Shown in pieces: positions 1 to 16,236 of a stretch of DNA of 16,236 nt. The position numbers were made by a program, and so were the translations under genes. The DNA is from Promethearchaeota archaeon (GTDB lineage: Archaea; Asgardarchaeota; Lokiarchaeia; Sigyniarchaeales; SOKP01): assembly GCA_018238625.1 (NCBI GenBank), contig JABCSY010000094.1:1-16236 (forward strand), written 5' to 3'. Under the pieces are notes generated by a model, which saw only the letters and a program-made list of their open reading frames with translations, was not told where the DNA came from and searched no databases. The first letter of the stretch is position 1; each line of letters starts with the position of its first letter.

Positions 1-1533
1 AACGTGATTTTTTTTGCATTCGTGAAATATCTTTCTGCTAATATCGGCTCCATTTTCCGAGAAATAGGCAATTCCGATATATTCGTAATCAGCCATTTTT
101 TTATCTATGTTTTTTCCAATTCTCACGATATCGTTATCCTTCTGATGTAGGACTCTTCTTTCTTTTAGCGGTTTATTTTTCGTTAGAACTAAATCGAGTT
201 TTTTGTCGATATCGTGTTTATGGTAGGCGTAAGAATTATCTACGACTAAAACTATGTCTTTCTTGGCGTTTAACAAGTTATTAATGATCTGTTGATCGAA
301 TAGAACATCTGAATTCAGATATATGAATCCATCGGTCATATCGTCTTCCGCTTTAAATAGGGAAAACAATATATGAGACTTATCATACTCGTCGTTATCG
401 ATATATTTTGCGCCATCAACGTTATAAAGTGATTTCTTATAGCCTCTTATTACGGTTATGTCTTTAATTCCACACGCATTTAAAGTCTCGATTTGTCTTT
501 GGAGTATTGATTTGCCTTTTATTTTTATTAAAGATTTTGGAGTGTCAAAAGAAGGGTCCTTCCCCGCAGCGGGTATAATAACTCTAATTCTTCCTTTTGT
601 ATATTTCATATCTTTTTTCTTTACTTCTAGAAACCCAACGTCTTCGAATATTGTTTTTACAGGGCTGCACATCGATTCGGCTTCAAAACCCCTTTTATTT
701 TTCAAAATCTTTAGAGCCGTCTCTTGCATGACTTTATGAGCGGAGCGTAATAATTGGTTGGCGTAAATAACGACATTAAACCCATATCCTTTTAGTTCTT
801 CTTCGGTAATTATATTATATGTCGTTGGGACGCATATTAGTGGCTTTCTAAATCCTAATTCGTCTGTTAATTTTTTGTATTCTTTAGCGAACTCAAATAT
901 TTCGCTAGGGTTGTCTATTTTAGAGTGAATTAAAATACCATCTGCTCCAGCTTTTAGATATTTTTTAGCCCGAAAGAGAGCGTCTTCTAATCCTAACCCC
1001 GAGATGAAGCTTTCGATCCGAGCGACGATCATAAAGTCTTGGGACAGTTGGATTTTTTTTCCTCTTTTTATTTTGACGGCAAAAACGTCTGGATCTTCTT
1101 GAGTCTGTTTTGAACCCGATTCTAAGCTGTTTCTTTTTGGAAACTTTTTATCTTCTATTATAACCATCGAAACGCCCATGTCTTCTAAGCTTCGAACGAA
1201 ATATTCGAAATTAGTCGCTTCTCCACCAGTATCTCCGTCCACGATTAATGGTTTATGGGAGCTGTTTAAAATTTGTCGAATTGTTTCGTATCTAGATTCG
1301 GGTCCGATTATTTCAGCATCAGGATATCCTTTTGCGGCACTATCAGTCAAACTACTTTCCCAAATTGCGTCGAATTCATAAATCTCGTTACCAACTTGTT
1401 CTTTTACGTTGTTTGCAACTATAGCGCTAAGACCGCTATGTGCTTCAATGACTCTTATTAAGTCTTTCTCTTTTAACAGATTTTTCAGAGATTTCCTTCT
1501 ATTTTCCGGGGAGATTCTATTTCTAAAACTCAT
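1..1533 (-). CDS. pepM: Phosphoenolpyruvate mutase fused to a C-terminal NTP-transferase (PntC/LicC-like) domain; 3' end runs off the window
   Basis: Manual translation from ATG at 1533, open to base 1 (511 codons): MSFRNRISPENRRKSLKNLL...IEAHSGLSA...FDAIWESSLTDSAAKGYPD...IVDGDTGG...VIIEDKKFPKRNSL (PepM EDKxxxxxNS motif, 1126-1155)...ARIES...AGADGILIHSK...LICVPTTY...VIYANQLLRSA. From about 590 downward: VIIPAAGKD...PKSLIKIKGKSIL...VIRGYK...YLNSDVLFD, a GT-A nucleotidyltransferase fold. Absent from the ORF track because no stop codon lies in the window. Confidence 0.93.
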   Translation of the reverse strand, partial: MSFRNRISPENRRKSLKNLLKEKDLIRVIEAHSGLSAIVANNVKEQVGNEIYEFDAIWESSLTDSAAKGYPDAEIIGPESRYETIRQILNSSHKPLIVDGDTGGEATNFEYFVRSLEDMGVSMVIIEDKKFPKRNSLESGSKQTQEDPDVFAVKIKRGKKIQLSQDFMIVARIESFISGLGLEDALFRAKKYLKAGADGILIHSKIDNPSEIFEFAKEYKKLTDELGFRKPLICVPTTYNIITEEELKGYGFNVVIYANQLLRSAHKVMQETALKILKNKRGFEAESMCSPVKTIFEDVGFLEVKKKDMKYTKGRIRVIIPAAGKDPSFDTPKSLIKIKGKSILQRQIETLNACGIKDITVIRGYKKSLYNVDGAKYIDNDEYDKSHILFSLFKAEDDMTDGFIYLNSDVLFDQQIINNLLNAKKDIVLVVDNSYAYHKHDIDKKLDLVLTKNKPLKERRVLHQKDNDIVRIGKNIDKKMADYEYIGIAYFSENGADISRKIFHECKKNHV

Positions 1534-1611
1534 ATTTTCTATAGTAATGTAAAAATATTATTTCTAAATAATTTTTAGGTTAAAAAGTGGAGCACTAAAT
1601 AAATGAAGTAA

Positions 1612-2832
1612 TTATGTATATTTAATTTTTAAAAAGTCTAAAATTCTTTTTGTAGAATTACCATCTACATATTTGTTAAAGCGATCTCTTATTATCCTTC
1701 GTTTTTCTGCGTATATTTTTTCAATTTCATCAATATCTCTTAGTGCTTCAATTAATTCGTTAATAGTAAATAACATAGGTCCAGGCGCAATATCGTTTAA
1801 ATCGTAATACATGCCTCGTTTTTTAGCATACTCTTCCAGATCGTATGGAAATAATAGGATTGGTTTATCTAATAAAGAAAAATCAACCATTGTTGAAGAG
1901 TAATCAGTTATTAATACATCTGAAATTAAATATAGCTCATGAATGTCTACTTCTTTTGAGATATTTCTAATATTAACATAATCTTGATGATCGAACAAGT
2001 TTCCAAAAGGATGGCCTTTCAATAGAAAAAGCGAGTTAGTTTCCTTAAGCGTATCGTCTAAATCTTTCAAATCTCTATTCGAGATTTTAAAACCTGAAGT
2101 TTTAAAGTCTCTAAATGTTGGGCAATATAGTATAATTCTATTAAAATCTTCAGCTATTTCAAATTTTTTCTTTAAAGTTTTTACAAATTCCCCATCTTTG
2201 TTAAATAAGATATCGTGCCTTGGATATCCTAAATTAAGAATTTTATTTAGAGGGACATCAAATGCTGAGCTTAAATTCTTATGTTCTAAGTCGCCCGTTG
2301 TTGGAGTTAATATGAAATCTATGTATTGATCGTATTTCAATTTTAATTTAAAGATATTGCCCCATTTTGTATATACATAGTTAACTGTTTCGTCAAGAAC
2401 TATTTTTTTAATTGGAGTTCCATGCCAAGTTTGAATAACTGTTGTGTCAGGAGATATTTCTATTGGTAATAAATCGTAAATTCCTTGAGTAATAAAAATA
2501 AATTTTGCTTTTCTCAATAGTCTAATTGCATTAATATTTAACGAGTAAATTGCATTATAACCGTTTTTTTTAAGCTCTTTGACTAAAGTCTTTGATTTGG
2601 CCATCCATACTACTCGATAATTTGAATGCTTAGATAAGAATTCAAATAGTGTGCGCGTATTACCTAAATATGTATTGCCCCCATAAGCGCCCATAATAAT
2701 TAGGTCCTCGTCAATATCGCCCCGAAACAATCTGGAAATAATTTTAAAACCGAAAGGTACGAGAATATCCCTTGTAAATTTATAATAATTACTATTTTTT
2801 ATGAACGAGAACCTCTCAAGTTGTAAATTCAT
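1612..2832 (-). CDS. CDP-glycerol glycerophosphotransferase (TagB/TagF) family protein
   Basis: Family motifs QTWHGTPIKKI, LGYPRHD, ILYCPTFRD, KGHP, SDVLITDYSS, FPYDLEEY..RGMY, DGNSTKRI. Confidence 0.9.
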   Translation of the reverse strand: MNLQLERFSFIKNSNYYKFTRDILVPFGFKIISRLFRGDIDEDLIIMGAYGGNTYLGNTRTLFEFLSKHSNYRVVWMAKSKTLVKELKKNGYNAIYSLNINAIRLLRKAKFIFITQGIYDLLPIEISPDTTVIQTWHGTPIKKIVLDETVNYVYTKWGNIFKLKLKYDQYIDFILTPTTGDLEHKNLSSAFDVPLNKILNLGYPRHDILFNKDGEFVKTLKKKFEIAEDFNRIILYCPTFRDFKTSGFKISNRDLKDLDDTLKETNSLFLLKGHPFGNLFDHQDYVNIRNISKEVDIHELYLISDVLITDYSSTMVDFSLLDKPILLFPYDLEEYAKKRGMYYDLNDIAPGPMLFTINELIEALRDIDEIEKIYAEKRRIIRDRFNKYVDGNSTKRILDFLKIKYT

Positions 2833-3028
2833 TATAAATTTCTCTTTCTTAGTAATTTGCTTTATAATTTTTAATTTTATAATATCACATTATCAAGTTA
2901 TATCTAATAATTATTTAGTTTCTTTCTTCTTTTTTGATACGATTTTAATATTCTTCTTATTAATTTATTATCTTTGTTAAAATATAACGAAATCTGAATT
3001 AGATAGTTGTGATATTTGTGATAACAGT

Positions 3029-3037
3029 TAAATATAC
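3029..3037 (+). promoter_or_regulatory. Possible archaeal TATA box for a leaderless transcript
   Basis: TTAAATATA lies about 20-28 nt upstream of ATG 3057 and there is no Shine-Dalgarno motif. Weak because the region is very AT-rich. Confidence 0.3.
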
Positions 3038-3056
3038 AATTAACAAAATATCATTT

Positions 3057-5075
3057 ATGTCCAAATCTAAATTAATAATAGGAATAATTTTAGTAGTTGT
3101 TGGTGGTGGTTTAATACCAACAGGATTTTTTGTAAACCAAATGTTCGTTGATCAAATTGCTGAGGGAGTTCCTGACGCACTTTTAGCTGTTGAAGACGAA
3201 GCCCTTCCATCTTTAGAAGAACAACTACCGGTTTTAGGTACGCCAGATGTACTTTTGGGTGTTGAAGACGGAGCACTTACTTCCTTAGAAGAACAACTGC
3301 CTGTTCTTACAACTCCTGCTGTCTTATTTGCTCTTAAGGAAGAGGCAGTAGGCACATTGCCGCTTATTATCAACGGTTCAGGTGCAGCCATAGTGATAAA
3401 CCAAACAATAACTGGTGTTGCTGGTGCAATTGGTTATCCTGCTGCTAAGGCACAATTCTTTAATAGCCCTACATTTCAAGCAACTTATGGCACGCCCCAA
3501 GGGGTTTCAGACTATTACGATACGCTAGCTGGTGATTTTGATGTGGTAAACCTTGGTTATACCGTTACTGCTCAAAATAATTTACTATATGGCGTGGGGC
3601 CTTTACCAGGATTAATTACAGATCTTGATATAGGGGAGGGTCTTCTGGGTTATATGGAACTCTACCTTAACGTAACTTTAGGTGATCAGGCGCTAAATGC
3701 AACTATGCAAAGCCTTTACAATGCTACATGGACTCAACTTGAATATCTTGCGGGCTATATAAAAAACTATCTATGGGATGGTGTGGTTAAATCAACATAT
3801 TCACCACCATATACCATAGAACAGTATGCTGAATTAGTATTTTACGCTCAGTGGGCTAATGGATCCGTTATCGAAGGTGGAATTGATTTAAGTCTCTTCA
3901 AGGATACGCTACCAGAAGATACTTTCGGTCTTGAAGCAGGTGTTCCAAACCCCACTAACATTACAGTACCCACATGCATGGCTCTTTGGGATGGTTCAAA
4001 TCCATACTCATTTGTAAACGATAGTGGGATTTTAATATGGGTTGGTGCGATGCAAGGAAATGTAACCCTCCAAGGTTATTTAATCGGAGCATTTAGTCTC
4101 ACTGGAGCTCAATTAACCATACTACTAGGTTGGCTTGGGAATTTTATGACTAATCTCGTTCCACTTTTGCTTTTTGACGAAACAGGGTATACCGTACCAG
4201 AACTAGCACAACTCGCATTCTATGAACAATGGGCTAATGGGACAATACAGGGGGCAGCAGTTTTACCTGATGGATTTTTAAATGAACTTAGTGCTTCCTT
4301 TGCGGGTGCGCCATATTTCGAAGTTGGATTACCAAGTCCTAGTGGACTTTCACTTACTGAAACTATGAATTTATGGGATGAAGCGAATGCTCTTACTTTT
4401 GTTAATATGGATGGTATCTTAGTCTGGCTTGGAGCAATTTCAAACGCGACTCTTCAAGGTACATTAATAGCAACGTTTGGCATATCTGCTGGTGAATTAA
4501 CAGCGCTTCTAGCCTGGTTGGGTGCTTTTCTTACAGTACGAGTTCCACAGCTTATTGAGTATGAAACAGGATATACTATACCAGAACTTGCTCAAGTTTC
4601 ATTTTATGAACAATGGGCTAACGGTACTATTCAAGGTCTAAGTATTTTACCTGATGGATTTTTAGCTGAACTTGATCCACCTTTACTAGGACCTCCCTAC
4701 TTCGAAGTTGGCTTAACAGAAGGTTCAACAGGCTTAACAGTTTTACAATGTGCTGCACTCTGGGATAATACAAGCGAATATTCACTCGTAACTGCAAGTG
4801 GAATAAATAAGTGGTATCAGGCAGAATCATCCAGTACTACATATGATGATTTAAGAACTAATAATGGTGGTATTTCTGCTGCGCAAATGACCCAAATTCT
4901 TGATTGGCTACCAAAATTTAGGGATATAATCGTAAATAAGTTAGCAAAAGAGGAATTGGGCTTACCGATGGAACCATATGATCTTGGAAATACACTCCTT
5001 ATGAGTCTAGGTGCTGGAGGCGGAACATTAGCCGTTATAGGCGTAGTACTATTAATATTATCGAAGAGAAAATAA
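3057..5075 (+). CDS. Uncharacterised membrane-anchored repeat glycoprotein (N- and C-terminal hydrophobic helices, about 672 aa)
   Basis: ATG 3057 (MSKSKLIIGIILVVVGGGLIP) is preferred over GTG 3009. C-terminal TM segment GGTLAVIGVVLLILSKRK, internal repeats, 13 N-X-S/T sequons, and visibly higher GC than neighbouring genes. Confidence 0.8.
   Translation: MSKSKLIIGIILVVVGGGLIPTGFFVNQMFVDQIAEGVPDALLAVEDEALPSLEEQLPVLGTPDVLLGVEDGALTSLEEQLPVLTTPAVLFALKEEAVGTLPLIINGSGAAIVINQTITGVAGAIGYPAAKAQFFNSPTFQATYGTPQGVSDYYDTLAGDFDVVNLGYTVTAQNNLLYGVGPLPGLITDLDIGEGLLGYMELYLNVTLGDQALNATMQSLYNATWTQLEYLAGYIKNYLWDGVVKSTYSPPYTIEQYAELVFYAQWANGSVIEGGIDLSLFKDTLPEDTFGLEAGVPNPTNITVPTCMALWDGSNPYSFVNDSGILIWVGAMQGNVTLQGYLIGAFSLTGAQLTILLGWLGNFMTNLVPLLLFDETGYTVPELAQLAFYEQWANGTIQGAAVLPDGFLNELSASFAGAPYFEVGLPSPSGLSLTETMNLWDEANALTFVNMDGILVWLGAISNATLQGTLIATFGISAGELTALLAWLGAFLTVRVPQLIEYETGYTIPELAQVSFYEQWANGTIQGLSILPDGFLAELDPPLLGPPYFEVGLTEGSTGLTVLQCAALWDNTSEYSLVTASGINKWYQAESSSTTYDDLRTNNGGISAAQMTQILDWLPKFRDIIVNKLAKEELGLPMEPYDLGNTLLMSLGAGGGTLAVIGVVLLILSKRK
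3168..3350 (+). repeat. Intragenic 72-nt (24-aa) tandem repeat, two full copies plus a degenerate third
   Basis: VPDALLAVEDEALPSLEEQLPVLG / TPDVLLGVEDGALTSLEEQLPVLT / TPAVLFALKEEAV. GTTGAAGACG at 3189 and 3261; TTAGAAGAACAACT at 3213 and 3285. Confidence 0.85.
3810..4920 (+). repeat. Three tandem intragenic domains of about 126-128 aa
   Basis: Units start at 3810, 4188 and 4572, each YT...A...FY.QWANG[ST]...E[AV]G...LWD....[ST][FL]V...GI..W....L.WL. The Q codons of QWANG are at 3849, 4227 and 4611. Confidence 0.9.
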
Positions 5076-5095
5076 AACTTCCAAAATATATATTC

Positions 5096-5106
5096 TTTTT
5101 TTTTTT
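5096..5106 (+). terminator. Oligo-T tract, putative archaeal-type terminator
   Basis: A run of 11 T about 20 nt after stop 5075, with no obvious GC hairpin before it. Confidence 0.45.
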
Positions 5107-5210
5107 ATTTTATCAATAAATTGCTTTATAGTTTCTAATAAGAAAAATTTTTAATTTTCGTATTATCTTTAATATTTATCAATCTTATTAAAAATAAAAA
5201 ATAGTTAACC

Positions 5211-6482
5211 ATGCTAAAAGAAATATTGTTTATTTCATACCATTTCCCCCCATTTAGCAAAATCTTGAGCATTAGAGCCGCAGAAGTTTCAAAAAGATTA
5301 GTGAATAATGGATATAAGATCTTTGTAGTAAGTTCAAAATCGAATAAAAATGCTTTTAAGGATATAAATTTACTACACAAAGTTAAGTCTCCCCTAATAA
5401 ATAACACGAGTGTTTTCAACCTCAGTTTCGCAATAAAAAGTGTGAATTCAAATATTCGAAAAAAACCATTATACTTTGAATTATTGAATCTTATTCTTTT
5501 TCTCCATTGGATTCCATTAGCATTCCTTGCTTGCAAAAGACAAATTAGAAAGAATGATATTAGGTTGATATATGTTTCCGCGCCTCCATTTTTTACTTTA
5601 ATATTAGGATATTTTTTGAAGTTAATCTTTAAAATTCCTTTAATTATTGAATACAGGGATCCATGGTCCTATAACCCCTATTTGAAAGGGACAATGTCAT
5701 CTTCGGTGGAAAATTTTTATTTATACATTGAAAAAAAAATATTAAAAACGGCTGATGGGATTTTTGCAATCAGTAATGGTATGAAAACGTTCTTAAGGAC
5801 AAATTTCTCAACTGAAATCAAAAACACAGAAATTCAAGTAATTCCCCATGGTATTAATATTGAAGATTTAAGAGTGATCCCTCAAAAAAAAGATTTTTCT
5901 AAAGAAATCACGTTTACGTTCACGGGTAATCTATACGGTCGAAGGGACCTTGAACCGTTAATCAAAATAGTATCTAAATCTCAAGAGAGTGGTTTTTTAG
6001 AGGGAATGTCTTTAAAAATAAATATTTTTGGCAAGTATGATAACAAGAAATTAAAATATTTAATTGAAAAATACAAAGTTTCCAACAATTTTGATTTAAA
6101 TGGATTTGTACCTCGGGATATCTGCTTAGATCAAATTACTAATTCTTCCTTAGCTTTGCATGTGGGAGAGAACCTTAATTATCCTACTCTAAGTTTTAAA
6201 GTGTGGGAATATTTAAGCATGGGGAAAAAAATACTCTATTTGGGGAGAGATGATTCTTATACAGCAGATTTTTTAGAAAAGAACAATCTAGGTTACACCA
6301 TTCCAATTAATGATTTGAAATTAGGACTAAAAAGATTTGAAGAAATAATAAGTGGTTTAAAAGAAAACCGAATCGAGTCAAACATCTATCCAGAACAACT
6401 GCGTCAATATACTTGGGATAATAGAGTTAAAGAAATTGAGATAATTTTTGCTAAATTTACTAAAGAGGACCATTTAAGATAG
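5211..6482 (+). CDS. Glycosyltransferase, GT-B fold, family 4-like
   Basis: ILFISYHFPP, YVSAPPF, PLIIEYRDPW, VIPHGI, FTFTGNLY..R, SFKVWEYLSMGKKIL, YTWDNR. Confidence 0.88.
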   Translation: MLKEILFISYHFPPFSKILSIRAAEVSKRLVNNGYKIFVVSSKSNKNAFKDINLLHKVKSPLINNTSVFNLSFAIKSVNSNIRKKPLYFELLNLILFLHWIPLAFLACKRQIRKNDIRLIYVSAPPFFTLILGYFLKLIFKIPLIIEYRDPWSYNPYLKGTMSSSVENFYLYIEKKILKTADGIFAISNGMKTFLRTNFSTEIKNTEIQVIPHGINIEDLRVIPQKKDFSKEITFTFTGNLYGRRDLEPLIKIVSKSQESGFLEGMSLKINIFGKYDNKKLKYLIEKYKVSNNFDLNGFVPRDICLDQITNSSLALHVGENLNYPTLSFKVWEYLSMGKKILYLGRDDSYTADFLEKNNLGYTIPINDLKLGLKRFEEIISGLKENRIESNIYPEQLRQYTWDNRVKEIEIIFAKFTKEDHLR

Positions 6483-6496
6483 TTAAGTGAATTATT

Positions 6497-8551
6497 ATGA
6501 GTAAACTCGAATTTTTGAAATATCTTAGACCTTTAAATTACTTTAACTTAGTAAATTATTATAAAATCCTATTCGAAAAATTCGTTCAAATTCCTATAAT
6601 TTATAAACGTAGGAGATATTTACGCAATTCAAAATCTTCAGAATTCCTTTACAATAAATTTATAGGAAATAATATATCTATTGATGAGTTATCTAAGATC
6701 TTTTTTCAAAAAAATATCTTTTATTATTCAAATATAGAAAGCCGTTCAGATATAATTAATATCTTGGACAAAAAATGCACTATAGAGAAGAATAAATTCA
6801 TTGATTATGCTAATTGTATTATTGAGAATGACTTTCAAATATTCGAAAAGCAATTAAAATTCGAAAAAGGTATAAATTGGCACTATGGTTTTGCAGAAAA
6901 TTACAATTGGAGTAGGATTCAATCTAACCAATTAGATATTATACCAAAAATTAATAATCAAAATGTTGATGTAAAATATGTTTGGGAGTTAAACAGACAA
7001 CTATTTTTGACGTATTTGGGGTTTGCTTATTATTACACGCAAGATGAGAAATATGCTCTCAAATTTAAGGAAATAATTTTACACTGGATAAGACACAATC
7101 CACCAATGATTGGAATTAATTGGTTTTCTGGGTTAGAAATTTCGATCCGTTTAACTTCTTGGATATTTTCGCTATATTTTTTTAAAAACTCAGAAATAAT
7201 CAACAATTCTCAATTTTTCAAGATTATTTTTCGATCTATGTTTCAACACGCTTATTATTTACGATTTTTCTATACCAAACGATCGTTCAATCATACTATT
7301 GGCGAATTATTTGGAGGATATTTGTTTTCTCATATATTTAACGATTGCAAGAAAATAAAAAACTGGGAACAAATCTCATTCAAGAAATTAAAAACGCAAA
7401 TATTATTACAGGTACGACCTGATGGATTCCATATAGAGCAGTCAGTTAATTACCACAGATTTGTACTTGAATTTTTTATGATTTTTCTTCTACTAAACAA
7501 AGATTTAATAGAAAGTCCTGAAGGGATTTTAATCAAGAAAATGGTAAAAAATTTATCGGTTATCGTTAAACCTAATGGAAAAGTTCCTTTAGTTGGTGAT
7601 GTTGATAATGGAAAAGTTCTTTTATTATCTGGTTATAATGATAAGTCCCATTTGGATTTAATAAACTTAGGATGCGTGTTATTCAAATCTTCTGACTTAA
7701 AACATATCGTTAAAAAATTATCTCCCATATCCCTCTTACTGTTTGGCCCCGAGGAGGTGAAATCAGTGGATTCTTTAGAATTCTATGAGCCAAAAAAAAA
7801 AGTTATATACTACGAAAATTCAGGTTATTTTCTTCTTAGAAACGGATGGGGCGATAAATCGAGTTACTTATTTGTCGATTTAGGAAACTTTGGTCCACAA
7901 AGAGCACCACATTCTCATAGCGGAATATCAAATATAATTTTATCTTGTAACGGAAAAGATATTTTAATAGATAGTGGAACAAAATCTTACAATAGATCAA
8001 TGGAAGAAAGAAATTATTTCAGGGGTAGCATAGCTCATAATGTAATTTCAATTGATAATAAAAATCAAGCAAAACCATCAAGTTGGTTTGGTTGGACTCA
8101 GAAACCCAAGACTAGTAGAAAGGTCGTGGAGAGTAATGATTTGATTCAAATTTTATGCAATCATGATGGATATAGCGGATTTTTAGTTCAAAGGTTAATT
8201 TTGGCTTCAAAAGACTTAAGATCTATTATTGTTAAAGACAAAGTTCAACCCGAAAGTAGAAAAAAGGATAATAAAAAACACAAAATAGAATTAAATTATC
8301 ATTTTCCTGAAGGAACATCGTTAGATGTCGATTTTAAAGGAAAGAATAGCGTCCTTATAAATAAAGAGATAATGCTAAGCATTTCCTCCAATTCTATTTT
8401 TGAATATAAATTGGAAAGTGCTGAAATTGCTCCCAAATATGGAGAGACTCACCAAATATCGGTTCTAAAGATACAAGTAATTGAAAGTTTTTCTAGTAAA
8501 AATAGCGTGAGTATCACTACTGAATTTAGGGTCATTAACCAATTAAATTAG
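6497..8551 (+). CDS. Heparinase II/III-like (alginate lyase fold) protein of polysaccharide loci
   Basis: DVKYVWELNR, WIRHNPPMIGINW, EISIR, NHTIGE, DGFHIEQSVNYHRFVLE, HSH, ILIDSGT, YFRGSIAHN, HDGY. Confidence 0.88.
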   Translation: MSKLEFLKYLRPLNYFNLVNYYKILFEKFVQIPIIYKRRRYLRNSKSSEFLYNKFIGNNISIDELSKIFFQKNIFYYSNIESRSDIINILDKKCTIEKNKFIDYANCIIENDFQIFEKQLKFEKGINWHYGFAENYNWSRIQSNQLDIIPKINNQNVDVKYVWELNRQLFLTYLGFAYYYTQDEKYALKFKEIILHWIRHNPPMIGINWFSGLEISIRLTSWIFSLYFFKNSEIINNSQFFKIIFRSMFQHAYYLRFFYTKRSFNHTIGELFGGYLFSHIFNDCKKIKNWEQISFKKLKTQILLQVRPDGFHIEQSVNYHRFVLEFFMIFLLLNKDLIESPEGILIKKMVKNLSVIVKPNGKVPLVGDVDNGKVLLLSGYNDKSHLDLINLGCVLFKSSDLKHIVKKLSPISLLLFGPEEVKSVDSLEFYEPKKKVIYYENSGYFLLRNGWGDKSSYLFVDLGNFGPQRAPHSHSGISNIILSCNGKDILIDSGTKSYNRSMEERNYFRGSIAHNVISIDNKNQAKPSSWFGWTQKPKTSRKVVESNDLIQILCNHDGYSGFLVQRLILASKDLRSIIVKDKVQPESRKKDNKKHKIELNYHFPEGTSLDVDFKGKNSVLINKEIMLSISSNSIFEYKLESAEIAPKYGETHQISVLKIQVIESFSSKNSVSITTEFRVINQLN

Positions 8552-8648
8552 TACTAAAGAATTTCTCGCAATATTTTTTTAGCAAAGCTTATTTATATAC
8601 TCATCAGCTAAAAGAACTTATAATATAATAAATTTAATCTCTAATCCT

Positions 8649-10826
8649 ATGAAAAAACTCTATATTAATCCACAAGGACAAATAGTTTTAAAAGAAGTCA
8701 GAGATCCTCAATTGCAAACAAGAGGAACCATTGTAAAAACCAGTTTTGCGTTGATTAGTTCAGGTACCGAATTATCAGCAATAAAATGGAAACGATTATA
8801 TAATTCCTCTATAATTAAACAATTTATTTCGTCAAAATATTTACGTAGGAGAATGTTTGATGAATTTAAAAAGCATTCCTTAAGAGGATTGTTAAAACTA
8901 TTCAAAATTTATAAAGAAAAAAATATTTTAAAAAATTTCAAAAATCCACTTTCAGATTTTTCACCTTTGGGTTATAGTTGTTCAGGCGTAGTAGTGGAAT
9001 CTAATGAAGACATCTATAAGCCACAAGAAAGAGTAGCCTGTGCGGGATCTAGTCATGCAGAAGCGATTTTTTCGCCTAAAAATTTAACGTGTAAAATTCC
9101 AGAAAATGTATCTTTAGAAGAAGCTGCGTTTTCAACACTGGGCGCAATAGCTCTTCATGGAATTCATAGAGCAAATGTTGTAGCTGGAGAATATGTGGGA
9201 GTAATTGGAACAGGATTAATTGGGTTAATTACAATTCAACTAGCAAAAGCAAGTGGAGCTCAAGTAATTGCGTTCGATTTAATTAATAAACGATTAAATC
9301 TGGCTAGAAAGTTAGGTGCTAATTATATTTGCAATCCGAATTATCATAACAGCGTAAACCTTGTCAACAAATTCACAAACGGTAAGTTACTAGATACGAT
9401 TATAATTTGTGCTACATCTAAATCAGCTAAACCTTTAGATGATGCGGTCTCATTAATCCGAGACAAAGGAAAGATCGTAATGTTAGGTGCCTTTCCAATT
9501 AGTGTTGATAGAAATAAGATATATTATAAAGAAGCTGATCTATTGATCTCAAGATCATATGGACCTGGTAGGTATGACCCATACTATGAGTTTGAGGGTT
9601 TTGATTATCCTAAAAAGTTAGTACCTTGGACAGAACAGAGAAATATGGAATTATTTTTAAAGCTACTCTCAGAGAAAAAGATTGACGTTTCTCCATTGAT
9701 ATCTGATATCATTCCTGCTGAAAAAGCAGAAAATGCTTATAAAAAGCTAGAAGAGGACCCAACAAACAATATAGCAATACTATTGAAATTTTCTGGAGAA
9801 AAAAAGGTTAAGCTTATTGATCAATTTGAGAGCCTAGATAAACGTCAGAATAAAGAATTGACAATTGGCTTAATAGGATGTGGCAGTTTCGCTCAAGGAA
9901 CCCATTTACCCCTATTATTACCAAATAGAAATTGCAAAATAAAAGCGATAGCGACTAAATCGCAAAAGTCTGCAGATATTTGTAAGAATAAATATCGACC
10001 TGATTATGTAACGACAAATTACAAAAAAATTCTTAAAGATCCAGATATCGATACGGTTTTTATTTATACTCAACATCATACCCACGCTAGATTCACAATT
10101 GAAGCTCTTAAAGCGGGAAAAAATGTTTATGTTGAAAAGCCGATGGGAATTACTTATCAAGAATGCCTTAATGTACACGATATAGTTAAAAACACTAAAT
10201 TAAACTATTGTATTGGATTTAATCGAAGATACAGTCCACTTATATTTAATGTTAAGGAATTAATTAAAGAACGTGTGAATCCAATAATAATAAATTATCG
10301 AATTGCTAGCTCATTCATACCAGGAAGCCATTGGGTATTTGATCCGAAAACTGGGGGAGGTCCTATTATTGGTGAATTTTGTCATTTTATTGATTTAATT
10401 CTATATTTAATAAACTCAAAACCGATCGAGATATTTGCTCTCGGAGGGGCAATGAGTCATAAAAATACAGATGTATACGATAGTTGTGTCGTTATGATAA
10501 GATTTCAAAATGGATCCATAGCTAACTTAATATATACGGATTTAAATGGTCCAAACATGCCCAAAGAGCGTATCGAAATATATTCTGGAGATTCAGCAAT
10601 AATAATTGAAGATTTTAAAAAAATGAAAACCTCTGGTTTTGGTTTTGGAAACATTCTATTAGACAAACAAGATAAAGGACACCAAAACGAGTTAAGCGCT
10701 GTAATTTTAGCTAATTTAGGATTAACAAAAGCTCTGGTTACTGAAGATGATGCTTTACAAGCAATGGAATTAGTGTTTAAAACAATTGAAAGTATAAAAA
10801 CCAATAAACCAATAAAATTGAATTAA
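8649..10826 (+). CDS. Bi-domain oxidoreductase (MDR/Zn-ADH-like plus Gfo/Idh/MocA), WeeE-like
   Basis: ISSGTE, PLGYSCSG, GVIGTGLIG, SRSYGPGRYDP.YE..G.DYP...V.WTEQRNM. Second domain has GLIGCGSFA, VYVEKP, GFNRRYSP, GEFCHFID, DKGH. Confidence 0.92.
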   Translation: MKKLYINPQGQIVLKEVRDPQLQTRGTIVKTSFALISSGTELSAIKWKRLYNSSIIKQFISSKYLRRRMFDEFKKHSLRGLLKLFKIYKEKNILKNFKNPLSDFSPLGYSCSGVVVESNEDIYKPQERVACAGSSHAEAIFSPKNLTCKIPENVSLEEAAFSTLGAIALHGIHRANVVAGEYVGVIGTGLIGLITIQLAKASGAQVIAFDLINKRLNLARKLGANYICNPNYHNSVNLVNKFTNGKLLDTIIICATSKSAKPLDDAVSLIRDKGKIVMLGAFPISVDRNKIYYKEADLLISRSYGPGRYDPYYEFEGFDYPKKLVPWTEQRNMELFLKLLSEKKIDVSPLISDIIPAEKAENAYKKLEEDPTNNIAILLKFSGEKKVKLIDQFESLDKRQNKELTIGLIGCGSFAQGTHLPLLLPNRNCKIKAIATKSQKSADICKNKYRPDYVTTNYKKILKDPDIDTVFIYTQHHTHARFTIEALKAGKNVYVEKPMGITYQECLNVHDIVKNTKLNYCIGFNRRYSPLIFNVKELIKERVNPIIINYRIASSFIPGSHWVFDPKTGGGPIIGEFCHFIDLILYLINSKPIEIFALGGAMSHKNTDVYDSCVVMIRFQNGSIANLIYTDLNGPNMPKERIEIYSGDSAIIIEDFKKMKTSGFGFGNILLDKQDKGHQNELSAVILANLGLTKALVTEDDALQAMELVFKTIESIKTNKPIKLN

Positions 10827-10843
10827 GATTACTTAGGTTACTT

Positions 10844-11626
10844 ATGACAACTTCAATATTAGATCCGGTTAAAATCTCAAACAAATATGCGATATTCTCA
10901 AATCAACCGGACGATCTTTTGTTTAATAAAGATTTTTTAAATAAGCCAATATTTTGCGCGGGTATCTTAAGAGAAATAGGGAGCGAAGTATATAATTATA
11001 AGATTGGAGATTTTTTAGGGTATTTTTCTCCCAATCAAGAGCTAGAGTTAGAAATATCGTCAAATTTAACGGTGAAAATTCCAAACGAAGACAACCATAG
11101 ATTAATATTCGTTTTACCTTATGCGCTACACGCAATGAATATTATGCGTAGGGTTGGTCCGAAATTAGGTGAAACGGTATTGTTAATTGGAGAAAACTTC
11201 TTTATTACTCTTTTAGAGAAATTATTTGCCTTTTCAGGGGCAGAAGTATTTGTATCATCTAAAAAAGCCTATGAACTGATACCTTCAACGGTAGATATAG
11301 CTCTAATTTCACCCGGAGCGACTGAAAATGCAAATTTTCTAAATGGATGTAAAATTGAAAGAAAATACGAGCTTACTCAATTTAATATTTATGACGAGGG
11401 ATTAGAAGATCCAAATTATATTAGGGGGATTAAATATCCTTATTCATATGTAAGATGGCAATACAAAACGAATTTGTATTATTTTATTGATCTTATTGTT
11501 AAAAATAGAATAAATCTTGATTTTTTTAAATTTACGGAGAAACAATTTAGTAACATCGACGAATTAAGCGAATGTATTGGTTCCTTAAAGGAAAATTCGT
11601 CAATATTGTTTAAATTACAGAATTAA
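10844..11626 (+). CDS. Degenerate MDR-fold protein paralogous to the N-domain of the upstream oxidoreductase
   Basis: PIFCAGILREIG vs PLGYSCSGVVVES; ALHAMNIMRR..PKLGETVLLIG vs ALHGIHRANVVAGEYVGVIG; DPNYIRGIKYPYSYVRWQYKTNLYYFIDLI vs DPYYEFEGFDYPKKLVPWTEQRNMELFLKLL. Confidence 0.7.
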   Translation: MTTSILDPVKISNKYAIFSNQPDDLLFNKDFLNKPIFCAGILREIGSEVYNYKIGDFLGYFSPNQELELEISSNLTVKIPNEDNHRLIFVLPYALHAMNIMRRVGPKLGETVLLIGENFFITLLEKLFAFSGAEVFVSSKKAYELIPSTVDIALISPGATENANFLNGCKIERKYELTQFNIYDEGLEDPNYIRGIKYPYSYVRWQYKTNLYYFIDLIVKNRINLDFFKFTEKQFSNIDELSECIGSLKENSSILFKLQN

Positions 11627-11635
11627 TCGCTAATA

Positions 11636-13069
11636 TCATATGGAAAGCTTTTGTTCGACCCAAATAAATTTTCCTCTGCTTGTTCTTTTAATGTCATCAA
11701 CAAATTCAATTTTAATATTAATATCTTTACCCATTTTTGAATATAAGGTTTTCAATATGGAATCTTTATCGAGATTTGTGAATGCATCCCGTTTAACAAT
11801 TTTTAAAATTGTTTCTCCTCTCTCCTCTTGGAAAAATTGAAACTTTTCCATGTTTTTAAAAACCATACCATGTAATGCTCCGATAACTCCCGTTAAAGAC
11901 ATCTTAATGCCTGTTCTATCCACAAGAAATTCCTGTATCCTACCTTGAATTGACTTTATTGTTGAAAAAGATCTTCCGCACTTACAAGATTTACCTGAAT
12001 ATTCAATAATATCCTCTGTATCGTACCTAATAAAGGGGAAAATATAGTTAGTTAAACTTGTTGCGTATAATTTTCCAATATCTCCCATATTTTTTGCCAC
12101 TTTTCCATGCTGATTTATTATTTCTGAAACGCCATATTCTGGAACGATATGATACAGGTCTGCTTGCTCACATTGATGAAATAGGGCACAAAGTTCTGCG
12201 TTTCCATAATGATCAAATACTCGAGAGTTAAATTGTGATTCCATTAAGCTTCTTTGATAAGGATACGAGTTTTCTGAACCAGTATGAGTAAGTTTTATGT
12301 TATCTAAGGTTTCTTCATTTTTCTCAAGGTATTTTGCCAAAGCATATAAATTTGATGGGAATCCAAATAAGATTGAATTTGGTCTACTTCTTATTAATTT
12401 TACATATCTTTTAAGATAAAAATCGTTCAAGTGGAAAGATGATAACACTAAAATTCGATACGGAATGTAATATTTAGACCATGAAACTTTTTCGTCAAAT
12501 CTATTAAGATTAGTTACTATTCCAGTCAAATAAATATATTCGTCAGAATACTTGACCCCTATCGTATTTCTATATCTCCAATGGAAAGCTTGTTCTATGG
12601 CTTTAGATTTCCCCTTTTCGTGATAGAAAACCGTAGGCACGCCTGTCGATCCACTCGTAGCAGTTAGCTTGAATTTTGATTCCGAATAATTTTGAGCTTT
12701 CAGCTTATCTAAATTATTTTTTATGATGTTTTTTGTTAGAGGAGGTATCAGTGATAATTTATCAAAATCATCAATATCAGCAGGTTTAATCCCTTCTCTT
12801 TTGAATAACGAACGATAGTAAGGAACATTTTTGCACGCATGATTTAATAGTTTAGATAAATTTTCAAGTTGATATTCTTCTATTTCGCTCTTGCTCCACC
12901 ATTGACTTTCATCTAAGAATTTTTTCCAATTACGAAATATCTGACCCTCTCTAATTGGAAGGGGTACTATTCTATAACCGTGCTCTACAAATCTTCTCAA
13001 TGATTGTGGAAACTTTTCAACAGATTTAAGACTTCTTTGTTCTAAATCGGTTAATGATCTTGAAAACAT
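11636..13069 (-). CDS. Phenylacetate-CoA ligase family adenylate-forming enzyme, CapK-like
   Basis: NVPYYR, P-loop TATSGSTGVP, GFPS, DHYGNAE, PFIRYDTED, IQGR, SRGK. ATG at 13069, alternative TTG at 13072. Confidence 0.88.
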   Translation of the reverse strand: MFSRSLTDLEQRSLKSVEKFPQSLRRFVEHGYRIVPLPIREGQIFRNWKKFLDESQWWSKSEIEEYQLENLSKLLNHACKNVPYYRSLFKREGIKPADIDDFDKLSLIPPLTKNIIKNNLDKLKAQNYSESKFKLTATSGSTGVPTVFYHEKGKSKAIEQAFHWRYRNTIGVKYSDEYIYLTGIVTNLNRFDEKVSWSKYYIPYRILVLSSFHLNDFYLKRYVKLIRSRPNSILFGFPSNLYALAKYLEKNEETLDNIKLTHTGSENSYPYQRSLMESQFNSRVFDHYGNAELCALFHQCEQADLYHIVPEYGVSEIINQHGKVAKNMGDIGKLYATSLTNYIFPFIRYDTEDIIEYSGKSCKCGRSFSTIKSIQGRIQEFLVDRTGIKMSLTGVIGALHGMVFKNMEKFQFFQEERGETILKIVKRDAFTNLDKDSILKTLYSKMGKDINIKIEFVDDIKRTSRGKFIWVEQKLSI

Positions 13070-13209
13070 CAATTTAAATTAATATGACAAGAATTAAATA
13101 ATTTTTTTTGTTATTTATAACCACATTTAGAAGAAAATTCATTTAGAAAATTTCATTATATCTATAAGTTGTATAAATTTTTTAATTTCTGTTGTGAGAG
13201 GATAAAAAG

Positions 13210-13920
13210 ATGAGAGCTATCATACTCGCTGGGGGTAAGGGTACTAGATTAAAACCATATACTTATTCTTTACCAAAACCTTTAATGCCAATTGGAGGAG
13301 AAATGCCAATATTAGAAATAATTTTAAAGCAATTAAAAAGAAATGGTTTTAACCATATCACAATAGCAGTAAATTATATGGCAAAGATCATAAAGGCTTT
13401 CTTTGACGATGGGAGTGAATGGGACCTGAAGATTGATTATTCAGTGGAAAGGATCCCATTAAATACAATAGGTCCCTTAACACTAATAGAAAATTTACCA
13501 GATAATTTTTTAGTTATGAACGGTGATATTTTAACAGATTTGGATTACTCGAAATTTTTTAAGTGGCATGTTGATAATAAAAATGATATTTCAGTTACTA
13601 CTTTTAAAAGAGAATCCATAATCGATTTTGGAGTTCTTAAATATAATGAAAATCAAGAAATCTTCGAGTTTATAGAAAAACCAAAATACTATTTTGATGT
13701 AAGCATGGGCATATATGCTTTAAACAAAAAAGTTATTGATGCTTTACCTAAAAATAAGGCGTATGGGTTTGATCAGCTAATGATTGACGGGATTAAAAAG
13801 AAGTACAAGATTAAGGGATATCCTCATGATTCATATTGGTTAGATATCGGACGAAATGACGATTATCAAGTTGCAAATGAAGATTACATTAAAAATAAGA
13901 AGAAATTCCTAAGGTTATAA
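13210..13920 (+). CDS. Sugar-phosphate nucleotidyltransferase (mannose-1-phosphate guanylyltransferase-like)
   Basis: AIILAGGKGTRLKPYT..LPKPLMPIG, FLVMNGDILTD, FIEKP, YWLDIGR. GAGAGG lies just upstream of the start. Confidence 0.92.
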   Translation: MRAIILAGGKGTRLKPYTYSLPKPLMPIGGEMPILEIILKQLKRNGFNHITIAVNYMAKIIKAFFDDGSEWDLKIDYSVERIPLNTIGPLTLIENLPDNFLVMNGDILTDLDYSKFFKWHVDNKNDISVTTFKRESIIDFGVLKYNENQEIFEFIEKPKYYFDVSMGIYALNKKVIDALPKNKAYGFDQLMIDGIKKKYKIKGYPHDSYWLDIGRNDDYQVANEDYIKNKKKFLRL

Positions 13921-13968: not shown

Positions 13969-14245
13969 ATTAGTCGTATTTATAATTATACAGTTGGTCC
14001 AACGGAAAGAGTTAAGGTTTGGTCTAGCGGTTATGTATTAGAGTTAGGGATTTATTATAGTTCTATTTTTGCTAAAAAAATAGGATTTAGATTGCAGAGG
14101 AAGCAGGATAATTTTAGGGAGTTAGATGAGGAGTACAGTTGTTTAAGTTCGTATGTACCTAAGATAGGGAAGATATTAAAAGCAAATATGAAAGAGGTTG
14201 GATTAAGGTACAAGGATATTAAAAGTGGATTGAATAAAGGTTTTT
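13969..14245 (+). other. Internal fragment of an intein-type LAGLIDADG homing endonuclease
   Basis: Frame open 13933-14277: ISRIYNYTVGPTERVKVWSSGYVLELGIYYSSIFAKKIGFRLQRKQ. F..KIGF...RK is typical of the end of intein endonuclease domains. No start context and no splicing motifs. Confidence 0.6.
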
Positions 14246-15326
14246 TTTCTAAGAGATCAGGGTTCGCTCTTATATAATTTTGTAATCCCTCAGCCCTATT
14301 ATGTGCATCAGGATCGCTAATTTCATATAAGAAAAACAGTCCTTCCTCGAGAGTCTTTATTAAATTGTGATTCTTTATAATCATTAATTTATTTGTATAC
14401 CTTTCGAATCTTGCTATATATTCTTTAAAACCATAATTATTTGTTGGAGGGTTAGTTCTTAGCAAGTTAACTTCCTCCTCAACAATTTCTCGCATTAAAG
14501 GCCTAATCTCTTCTAAAGCCCTTTTGCTTTCCTCATCTTTGAAATGTAAATAAAAGCGATTTAACGAATCGAGACAATTATTACCTCTATAACCCCCTAA
14601 TTTTAATACTGCCAATGTATTGTTTTCAAGCTTTTGCTTTATTTCTTTAAACTTATATAAATGTTTTTCAAGAACATTCGTCTTTGCTTCAACTTCTCTT
14701 AATCGCTCGTATAACATCCCAATATAAACGATCTTCTCCTTCAAATCGCTGTATTTGGTTTTTATAAAAACGATATCAAGGTTATCTTTATCTACCTTTT
14801 CTAATTTTGCTTTAATTTTTACCTTTAATCCATAGAAATTTTTTAGAATACTGCTATATGATTCTTTATCCTCTTTTGTATCAAAAACGTCTAAAAACAG
14901 GTCTGTAATTTTATCATATCTCTTATCTTCTTTCTCAACTTTAGCTTTTTCATTAGTAATAGCATCTAAAAAATTGTTGAAAAACTTTCCTTGCCCTTGA
15001 AGTATGCTAAATTGGTTCTTTATTTTATTAAAGTAATTTTTGAGTTTAGTTTGATCTCCCTGCTCTCTCAATTTTTTTAATTCTCTTGCAATATTTTCAA
15101 TTCCAATGTTTTGCAATTTAACGATGAACTCTTCCGCATTTTTTTTCTTGGAACTAAATCCGTCAATAGATATTAATGATGTCTCGATATCAATTGAAGA
15201 ATCATCGTAATCTTCTAAGGAACCCCTTATAATTTTACTCTCATCGATTAAAAATTCGTAATTGCTTACATCCTCGTATAATTGATTTAAAGCCCCCTTG
15301 TCATTTACTGATTCTTCGTAATTATC
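14246..15326 (-). other. Internal fragment of an unidentified K/E-rich helical protein (middle of the chimeric 530-aa ORF)
   Basis: About 360 open codons with protein-like composition and no recognisable motif. It does not resemble the rest of FtsX. Confidence 0.5.
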
Positions 15327-15647
15327 TAAAAAATCAATAAAATCTTCACCAAGGTCTTTTGTTAGTTCTTCGGCGGCTTTTTCTTTAGTAATATATTCGG
15401 TTGATTTCACGTAATCAGAGGCGTCAAGGGTTTTTTGAAGCTGAATAATACCGGCTTCTTTAACATTTTCTTTCATAATTATTGAAAACCCGATATTTTC
15501 CTTTACATAATCCGAAAGTTTTTTTGCATGCAAAATTATTAATCCCAGCATACCTAACATAAAAAGAACCAGTGTAATACTGACAACTGTAGTTATATAA
15601 GAACTTTTAAGGCGTCTTTTACTATATTTATCTTCTGCTTTAGACAT
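15327..15647 (-). other. ftsX: 5' fragment (107 aa) of cell division protein FtsX, Bacteroidota-like
   Basis: KRRLKSSYITTVVSITLVLFMLGMLGLIILHAKKLSDYVKENI...YITKEKAAEELTKDLGEDFIDFL. It breaks off where the conserved G.NPL motif should follow, and the three C-terminal TM helices are absent. Confidence 0.85.
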
Positions 15648-15695
15648 GAAATTATTTTGATTGCTGCTAAATTAATAAAATTAACGAAACTGAAA

Positions 15696-15960
15696 TTAAA
15701 GTATTATGTCTGCTTCTCCTTTTCGTAATGTAAAAATTGTGATTTCACCCTGGCAGTAAAATCTTAGCGGAATACCCGAAACACCACATCCGCAACTTGT
15801 ATATCCGGTTATAGAATTGTGTTTCCATAAACCTTTATAAAATTTTCTTCCTTCAAACTGGTGTGTAATTATGGGAATTCCGCCAGGCAGGCATATCTGC
15901 CCGCCATGAGTATGACCGCATAAATATAAATTGTATCCATTTTCAGCAGCAACATCATAC
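15696..15960 (-). other. 3' fragment of a YkuE/YaeI-like metallophosphoesterase
   Basis: LYLCGHTHGGQICLPG, GYTSCGCGVSGIPLRFYCQGEITIFTL. The N-terminal DxH, GD and GNHD motifs are missing. Confidence 0.85.
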
Positions 15961-16094
15961 TCTTTGAGGCTTTTATACATTAAAGCTGATTTAATCAAAG
16001 ATGATGTTGCAAAAGTGCTTTTGGGATAGAAAACCTGAACCTGGCGATAAGCTTTTGCTGCCGATGTAATTTCATTATTCTTTTCAAAGCATTC
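15950..16094 (-). other. Short tetratricopeptide-repeat-like fragment
   Basis: Upstream in-frame extension of the 100-aa ORF reads [47 protein letters not shown], matching the A..AY..V...YP.S..A pattern of CpoB/BamD-type TPRs. Confidence 0.55.
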
Positions 16095-16236
16095 ATTAAT
16101 ATCATTGAACTAACTTGTTGCCTACCGACACGTTTTCTTCTGCCCATATAATTACGTAAAATCATTAAAGAACGACCTGCACAATGTCTAAATCTACGTT
16201 TAAGTACTTCGGATTTGTCAATTGCGAGTTCCATAA
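16075..16236 (-). other. lhr: Internal fragment of archaeal Lhr-type ATP-dependent helicase (C-terminal domain)
   Basis: [50 protein letters not shown] matches the archaeal Lhr motif KRRFRH.A.R..MILRNY.G....V.RQQ. Similarity ends abruptly after KRI. Confidence 0.8.

Follow-up and report, generated by a model that had tools for sequence, protein, structure and literature searches.

What would a phosphoenolpyruvate (PEP) mutase and a TagF-like transferase, encoded side by side in a Lokiarchaeia archaeon, make together, and on what would the product be placed? The two genes lie at the left end of contig JABCSY010000094.1 (C64) of genome assembly GCA_018238625.1 (G000); we analyzed this whole contig, a stretch of 16,236 bp (hereafter, the window). 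The assembly was 4.29 Mb in length, consisted of 201 contigs with a G+C content of 32%, and was 97.9% complete and 7.6% contaminated. In our reading, to which we give a probability of roughly 0.6, the window encodes both the opening enzyme and the transferase of a putative cassette that makes, activates, and attaches 2-hydroxyethylphosphonate (HEP) within a variable glycan island of Lokiarchaeia. An initial annotation, made from the letters of the window, had proposed a CMP-activated phosphonate attached to an envelope glycan. All of the parts that it named—PEP mutase (PepM) with the EDKxxxxxNS motif, a fused nucleotidyltransferase, a TagF-like protein, a family 4 glycosyltransferase (GT4), sugar-modifying enzymes, and a sequon-rich membrane protein—were present, and its CMP-activation logic and glycan-island setting were supported. 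Three strand changes show that the genes do not form one operon.

PEP mutase and its host

The open reading frame at positions 1–1533 of the reverse strand scored 337 bits with the PEP mutase model TIGR02320 (cut-off 319.55), while its scores with the phosphonopyruvate hydrolase model TIGR02321 (147 bits, cut-off 374.4) and the lyase model TIGR02317 (105 bits, cut-off 354.4) were far below the thresholds. The loop motif EDKKFPKRNS (residues 127–136) follows the EDKxxxxxNS definition given for PepM (PMC6697681). The best match in the PDB was Mytilus PEP mutase (E 2e-45), and the W-x-S, D, DxDTG, R, and H positions were retained in the alignment with 1m1b. By family membership, the protein is a genuine PEP mutase, as initially annotated, and not a phosphonopyruvate hydrolase or another member of the superfamily; it would convert PEP to phosphonopyruvate. 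The mutase part (residues 1 to ~310) is followed by an atypical PF12804 nucleotidyltransferase-like domain. The 3′ end lies beyond the contig: 511 of ~564 residues are encoded, ~53 codons being lost at the contig end, and the nearest full-length relatives have 564 aa and 95% identity. A single-sequence structure model of the full-length fusion reached a predicted local distance difference test (pLDDT) value of only 36.5.

Among the best 80 of 81 matches, PepM at 71–96% identity was found in 23 genome records (21 Promethearchaeota/Promethearchaeia, 1 “uncultured archaeon”, and 1 Odinarchaeota), followed by a tier of Nitrospinota and one Fibrobacterota record at 56–61%. Named homologues of the membrane protein of the window were likewise from Asgard archaea. 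In the PepM-domain tree of 62 rows (obtained from 90 by removing a short row and 27 bacterial ones that were redundant), the window fell inside a 30-row clade (SH-aLRT 99) in which every genome belonged to the family of the source genome and the sub-clades mostly followed genera. Because the clade is restricted to this family and the homologues are Asgard, the contig is, on sequence grounds, not bacterial contamination, except for the end beyond ~13,990. The Asgard/Lokiarchaeia host proposed initially is thus upheld by the homologues and the tree; the terminator and Shine–Dalgarno argument given for it could not be reproduced, since promoter and terminator scans of the window were at chance level.

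A second type of Lokiarchaeia PepM, of 433–440 aa with N-terminal PF01467 in the layout of Fom1, was found in five genomes of the class. Placing both types in one clade was rejected by the approximately unbiased test (p-AU 3.3e-5, 37 rows); therefore, the trait entered the class at least twice. The closest bacterial PepM fusions, from Nitrospinota records (L110, L113–L134, L138, L140, L158, and L164), have housekeeping-like neighbors, with no Ppd or iron-dependent alcohol dehydrogenase match within 6 kb. Lower-scoring PepM-family proteins at loci L077–L086 (27–32% identity) stand beside aconitase/isopropylmalate-isomerase-like or citrate-synthase-like reading frames, as judged from sequence starts; by these features, they are other superfamily members and not PepM.

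Probable HEP synthesis in relatives of the source genome

The continuation of the cassette was found in close relatives. On the metagenome contig L214 (PepM amino acid identity with the window 94%; nucleotide identity 89.5% over 1724 bp), pepM is followed by genes for an iron-dependent alcohol dehydrogenase (Fe-ADH), a 241-aa nucleotidyltransferase, and phosphonopyruvate decarboxylase (Ppd). In the same-genus genome G008 (96%), Fe-ADH and the nucleotidyltransferase follow PepM up to the contig end. PepM and Ppd each exceeded the cut-off in 35 of the 161 genomes of the class, and they occurred together in 32 of the 35 PepM genomes; those without Ppd were G000 and G008, whose contigs end inside the cassette, and G139. 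Ten genomes with lower TIGR02320 scores (nine at 117–145 bits and one truncated PepM) were excluded from these counts, and none of the Ppd/Fe-ADH clusters was found at the ten such loci that were mapped. Of the 301 genomes sampled from the phylum, 23 had PepM, four of these lying outside this class. As a side observation (L206, L207, L049), Ppd exceeded the cut-off in two genomes that lack PepM, possibly serving phosphonate catabolism, and G139 has the reverse.

Within 7 kb of pepM, the 35 loci, several of which end early at contig edges, contained Fe-ADH in 30 cases, Ppd in 29, and aminoethylphosphonate (AEP) transaminase in 3, never alongside Fe-ADH. Also encoded there were GlpT-type major facilitator superfamily transporters (14 loci), sulfatase-like proteins (14), TagF-like proteins (10), CDP-alcohol-transferase-like proteins (7), and the membrane protein of the window (2). 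In the scheme of Li and Horsman (PMC8942020), Ppm, Ppd, and Fe-ADH together denote HEP; because Fe-ADH and Ppd occur in the cassettes of the relatives, we read the product as HEP. Ppd would yield phosphonoacetaldehyde and Fe-ADH would reduce it to HEP, the same being expected for G000. HEP synthesis is very probable, and the CMP-activated phosphonate of the initial annotation can be narrowed to HEP specifically, not methylphosphonate. An AEP version also exists: in three genomes of genus g21, loci L069, L070, and L071 encode PepM, Ppd, a nucleotidyltransferase similar to Tde-PntC, and AEP transaminase over cut-off.

Proposed nucleotide activation

Two proteins are candidates for CMP activation: the domain fused to PepM and the stand-alone nucleotidyltransferase of the relatives. 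The fused domain matched PF12804 with 38 bits; its nearest structure was LicC (1jyk), and its Atlas neighbors were PF12804 proteins. According to Rice et al. (PMC6697681), PntC is defined by the motif GXG(T/S)RX4-8PK, and the R15A, K25A, and K153A variants each had <10% activity. The corresponding motif of the window reads AAGKDPSFDTPK and has no Arg. This Arg of GxGxR was missing from all 59 fusions of this kind, archaeal and bacterial, and the equivalent of Asp222 was His or Asn in all 41 fusions in which the motif was found; the equivalents of Lys25, Lys153, and Asp106 were retained. The initial view of the fused domain as the obvious activating enzyme is thus not supported.

Stand-alone enzymes of the relatives had GxGxR in 31 of 31 cases and contained the GxGxR...PK, D106, and EID motifs. 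At the position of Glu104, the amine-contacting residue of Tde-PntC, Glu was present in 3/3 loci with AEP transaminase and His in 27/28 loci with Fe-ADH. The AEP-type enzyme matched Tde-PntC (6pd1) with an E-value of 1e-37, and the HEP type with only 3e-8. We infer from these residues that the stand-alone enzyme makes CMP-HEP, the fused domain being impaired or having another role. CMP activation is probable, scarcely less so than HEP synthesis; the PntC/LicC-type enzyme would most likely be a stand-alone protein of ~240 aa encoded beyond the contig end.

TagF-like protein as a candidate HEP transferase

The gene at positions 1612–2832 of the reverse strand, on the strand of pepM and 78 bp from it, encodes a TagF/TarF-family CDP/CMP-alcohol phosphotransferase (PF04464, E 2e-77, 261 bits). 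In the alignment with Staphylococcus epidermidis TagF, WHGTP, GYPR, the His mutated in 3l7m, and ITDYSS were kept; the two His are presumably catalytic. The scores were below the equivalog cut-offs for TarF, TarL, and TarB (193/550, 96/1000, and 91/500, respectively). TagF-like genes were found in 37 of the 161 class genomes, 21 of which had pepM; pepM was thus present in 21/37 carriers vs. 14/124 other genomes, kin not being independent in this comparison. In the TagF tree (38 rows), the protein of the window belonged to a six-row clade (95/92), all members of which are encoded directly beside pepM. Genes of the other clades either neighbored inositol-1-phosphate synthases with a nucleotidyltransferase or an IspD/TarI-like gene, or had no evident donor gene nearby. 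For the putative transferase of the window, the neighboring genes point to CMP-phosphonate as the donor.

The pepM-negative genomes G141, G012, and G002 encode a TagF-like protein, an intact nucleotidyltransferase, and a GlpT-type transporter at the site that the synthesis cassette occupies in G150 and G151. Such transporters were encoded in 24 of the 161 class genomes, 16 of them with pepM. This looks like make-or-import modules feeding one transferase, although the imported substrate could be glycerol-3-phosphate. The cassette would accordingly be an exchangeable unit within a variable glycan island, in which a transporter and a nucleotidyltransferase replace synthesis in some relatives.

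In the last and weakest step of the scheme, the TagF-like protein would use CMP-HEP as the donor and place HEP on a hydroxyl group of a surface-glycan sugar, and we somewhat favor this transfer on the basis of the gene neighborhoods. The acceptor is plausibly a lipid-linked N-glycan, AglB being present in G000. HEP linked through its phosphorus would form a monofunctional cap unless its hydroxyl were extended. Separately, at L174 (positions 3945–7051), L175, and L176, a TagF-like gene has a nucleotidyltransferase gene and two paralogous inositol-1-phosphate synthase genes as neighbors, which makes this a candidate system for inositol-phosphate glycan decoration in Lokiarchaeia.

Transcription and N-glycans of cultured P. 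syntrophicum

Data on cultured P. syntrophicum bear on the chemistry. Its genes DSAG12_01619–01622, annotated as COG1213 nucleotidyltransferase, COG1454 Fe-ADH, Ppd (K09459), and PepM (K01841), had 208–270 reads per kilobase per million (RPKM) in Supplementary Table 3 of Imachi et al. 2020 (PMC7015854). The same source gives RPKM values of 16 for the second nucleotidyltransferase, 13 for the transporter, and 49 for the sulfatase-like gene. DSAG12_01619 is presented as an aglF homologue by Nakagawa et al. 2024 (PMC11284389); its position in this cluster suggests a phosphonate cytidylyltransferase.

The latter authors reported N-glycans of 801.30 Da, with N-acetylhexosamine (HexNAc) at the end, and of 909.30 Da, with a terminal 311.08 unit that they left unassigned. 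We found that the two glycoforms are one C2H5O3P unit apart (calculated 909.2991) and that HexNAc plus C2H5O3P (calculated 311.0770) is the sole chemically reasonable one of five CHNOPS formulas within ±0.005, though HexNAc is not necessarily part of the 311.08 unit. AEP, methylphosphonate, phosphoethanolamine, sulfoethyl, taurine, glycerophosphate, phosphonoacetate, phosphate, and sulfate did not fit 311.08/909.30. In a 2026 preprint re-analyzing the same data (10.64898/2026.04.15.718822), the text leaves 311.08 unassigned, and its description of the 801 glycan does not add up. The 1212.40 glycan of PMC11284389 has another unassigned unit of 303.10 Da, close to HexNAc + C4H4O3 (303.095; total 1212.395), at the edge of the rounding window. 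Extending these results to the class, we tentatively propose, at slightly less than even odds, that about one-fifth of Lokiarchaeia cap protein N-glycans with HEP, which an exchangeable module makes or imports and a transferase of the TagF or sulfatase fold attaches; the unassigned terminal sugar of 311.08 Da in P. syntrophicum would be HexNAc-HEP.

Evidence against the reading and alternative explanations

Several observations weigh against an HEP cassette with a TagF-like transferase. Regarding synthesis and activation, a genome-wide profile search of G000 found neither Ppd nor AEP transaminase over cut-off, its Fe-ADH paralogues were only ~28% identical, no close Fe-ADH being present, and the stand-alone nucleotidyltransferase was absent from the assembly. 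The Fe-ADH of the relatives (PF00465) scored 190 with TIGR03405, the phosphonate Fe-ADH model (cut-off 423.7), its role being assigned from context, and the HEP-type stand-alone enzyme had no equivalent of Lys153 in the alignment. Regarding transfer, 16 of the 37 TagF-like carriers lacked pepM; only 10 of the 35 pepM loci had the gene, sulfatase-like (14) or CDP-alcohol-transferase-like (7) genes being found instead; and two metagenome loci had TagF-like and sulfatase-like genes together. In P. syntrophicum, PepM belongs to the second type, which was acquired separately, isomers of HEP such as ethyl phosphate fit 311.08 equally well, and the TagF-like gene DSAG12_01891 had an RPKM of 0, as did most of its island (PMC7015854).

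The alternative that survives best is that HEP and CMP-HEP are made and the TagF-like protein uses another donor, HEP being moved by a protein of the sulfatase/alkaline-phosphatase fold or by an unlinked transferase. The TagF-like carriers without pepM, the sulfatase-like genes beside pepM in 14 of the 35 loci, and the expression of the sulfatase-like gene in P. syntrophicum, where the TagF-like one is silent, are in its favor. However, tblastn found no match in G000, an incomplete assembly, to the pepM-linked sulfatase-like or CDP-alcohol clusters, and the six TagF genes of the clade of the window are flanked by no other CDP-donor gene; we consider this alternative unlikely. Marginally less likely is a lipid or a teichoic-acid-like or exopolysaccharide polymer as the acceptor in place of a protein-linked glycan. 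TagF proteins are polymer primases or polymerases, CDP-alcohol phosphotransferase-like genes occur in 7 of the 35 loci, and several islands contain flippase and ABC-2 export genes; yet the only chemical hint for the class is an N-glycan, and the window has no CDP-alcohol gene. That the cassette of G000 is a dead remnant, as a 97.9%-complete assembly without Ppd and the PepM-bearing relative G139 might suggest, or that its protein is another isocitrate-lyase-superfamily enzyme, is very improbable, since the frame is open up to the last base of the contig, the first bin is covered by contigs from four runs, some of which extend past one or the other end of the window, and the scores with the hydrolase and lyase models are well short of their cut-offs.

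Returning to the main reading, the absence of a downstream phosphonate enzyme from the genome, which the initial annotation had named as a sign against a phosphonate system, does hold formally for Ppd. The absence of Ppd, Fe-ADH, and the nucleotidyltransferase from G000 is nevertheless best read as an assembly gap because the last 53 codons of pepM itself are also missing from the assembly.

Other genes of the island

The membrane protein encoded at positions 3057–5075 of the forward strand is a 672-aa, two-anchor, all-helical repeat glycoprotein, a neighbor and not a dedicated part of the cassette. It has a hydrophobic stretch at each end, three QWANG repeats, and 13 N-X-S/T sequons, compared with 4.1 ± 1.9 in 5000 shuffles, none of which reached 13. 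The initial annotation had included it in the phosphonate system; its family was found in 83 of the 161 class genomes, with pepM in 21 of the 83 carriers (p 0.34, no association), and orthologues at 76–89% stood in non-glycan contexts in pepM-negative genomes (four loci viewed). A role as a dedicated acceptor is therefore not supported. The predicted model was all-helical (pLDDT 89.8); it had no match in the PDB fold search at E ≤ 0.001 and no usable match in the Atlas. No Pfam match was obtained, and the PF01130 barrel was not found. The QWANG repeat of ~128 aa is homologous to an insert of CD36-family proteins (the CD36 tip), only this insert repeat being shared; it matched a Cavostelium protein with a BLAST E-value of 6e-22. 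PF01130 was present in 18 of 38 distant matches scanned, among them Hodarchaeales, Kariarchaeaceae, Heimdallarchaeota, Promethearchaeota, and two protists, and full PF01130 proteins were found in 20 of the 301 phylum genomes. We found no relevant paper on CD36 in Asgard archaea and no CD36 term in the supplements of Eme et al. 2023.

GT4 (5211–6482), a heparinase II/III-like protein (6497–8551), and a bi-domain protein consisting of a zinc-dependent alcohol dehydrogenase (Zn-ADH) and a Gfo/Idh/MocA oxidoreductase (8649–10826) follow on the forward strand. This block, also initially assigned to the phosphonate system, adjoins pepM in only 3 of the 35 loci; the module follows ppd in L062 and L068 and the import module in pepM-negative G002 (L170). 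By this distribution, 5211–10826 is a sugar module in its own right within the glycan island. The genes at 10844–13920 are further island genes with no apparent link to the phosphonate: a 260-aa protein without a family match (10844–11626, forward), a PaaK-like ligase (11636–13072, reverse), and a sugar-1-phosphate nucleotidyltransferase (13210–13920, forward). The 260-aa protein is degenerate Zn-ADH-like, with a weak likeness to the Zn-ADH half of its upstream neighbor (pairwise E 3e-4), and is perhaps a degenerate partner subunit.

In genus g22 (L050–L066 and contig C185 of G000), the cassette is inserted beside a conserved multi-pass membrane protein of 760 aa that falls into no Pfam family and could, as a guess, be a GT-C-type glycosyltransferase, an ApbE-like gene, and an Arf-family GTPase. 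The region of the window at 13990–16236, which lies outside the finding, is a probable assembly chimera: depth beyond ~13,990 drops several-fold or more in four runs, and the N-terminus of a bacterial-type FtsX is joined at 15326 to an unrelated frame, followed by fragments of a metallophosphoesterase and an Lhr helicase. A tetranucleotide test did not separate this right end from the rest of the genome.

Comparison with known systems and significance

As in bacterial Pnt clusters, where the Ppm-PF12804 fusion makes up 33% of Ppm proteins (Rice et al. 2019, PMC6697681), this fusion is accompanied by a stand-alone nucleotidyltransferase one to two genes away, by Ppd, and by nearby glycan genes. 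Unlike in those clusters, the host is archaeal, HEP and not AEP is indicated (Fe-ADH in 30/35 loci), and the candidate transferase is TagF- or sulfatase-like and not LicD. The fused domain also lacks the equivalent of Arg15, whose loss cut the activity of Tde-PntC to <10% in the same study. The proposed Ppm-Ppd-PhpC route to HEP on a surface glycan would be shared with the HEP phosphonoglycan of Stackebrandtia nassauensis and Glycomyces (Yu et al. 2014, as cited in PMC8942020), which, however, is an actinobacterial exopolysaccharide. The early steps of fosfomycin biosynthesis (Fom1, CyTase-PepM; PMC6697681) proceed through CMP-HEP, the intermediate proposed here, and the second Lokiarchaeia PepM has the Fom1 layout; in contrast, the loci lack the later antibiotic genes, and PepM of the window has a C-terminal PF12804. 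The methylphosphonate exopolysaccharide cluster of Nitrosopumilus maritimus similarly combines archaeal PepM, Ppd, and a reductase with surface-polymer genes (PMC9381506, PMC8942020), but the annotations of the cluster representatives surrounding pepM included no MpnS/HEPD-like gene, no genome-wide search having been made. The PF04464 fold and active-site motifs are those of the TagF/TarF teichoic-acid glycerophosphotransferases (PDB 3L7I), while the protein of the window is below the TarF/TarL/TarB cut-offs and has no TagD-type donor gene alongside. To our knowledge, the host has no peptidoglycan.

The initial annotation knew of no description of such a system. We found no paper on this system in Asgard archaea or Lokiarchaeia, most subscription papers being outside the search, and none on a phosphonylated Asgard N-glycan or a phosphonate transferase of the TagF family. 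The initial statement is almost, though not fully, correct: among 48 of the 58 Lokiarchaeia rows in supplementary Table S3 of Dong et al. 2024 (PMC11051675), at least one antiSMASH phosphonate cluster is listed, without comment, in a metagenome-assembled genome. Li and Horsman used 12 archaeal neighborhoods (PMC8942020), and marine group I are the only archaea named in the relevant passages of Lockwood et al. (PMC9381506). The core chemistry is ordinary and known from bacteria; the host is new, and the transferase candidate is unusual.

The finding gives a testable chemical identity for the unassigned sugar of the only published Asgard glycoproteome, the data of which are public (PXD051006, according to PMC11284389) and the strain of which is in culture. 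If true, the Asgard cell surface would have to be pictured with an anionic cap that resists hydrolysis, the chemistry of the TagF family would extend to C–P donors, and Asgard archaea of anoxic sediments would be an uncounted source of environmental phosphonates.

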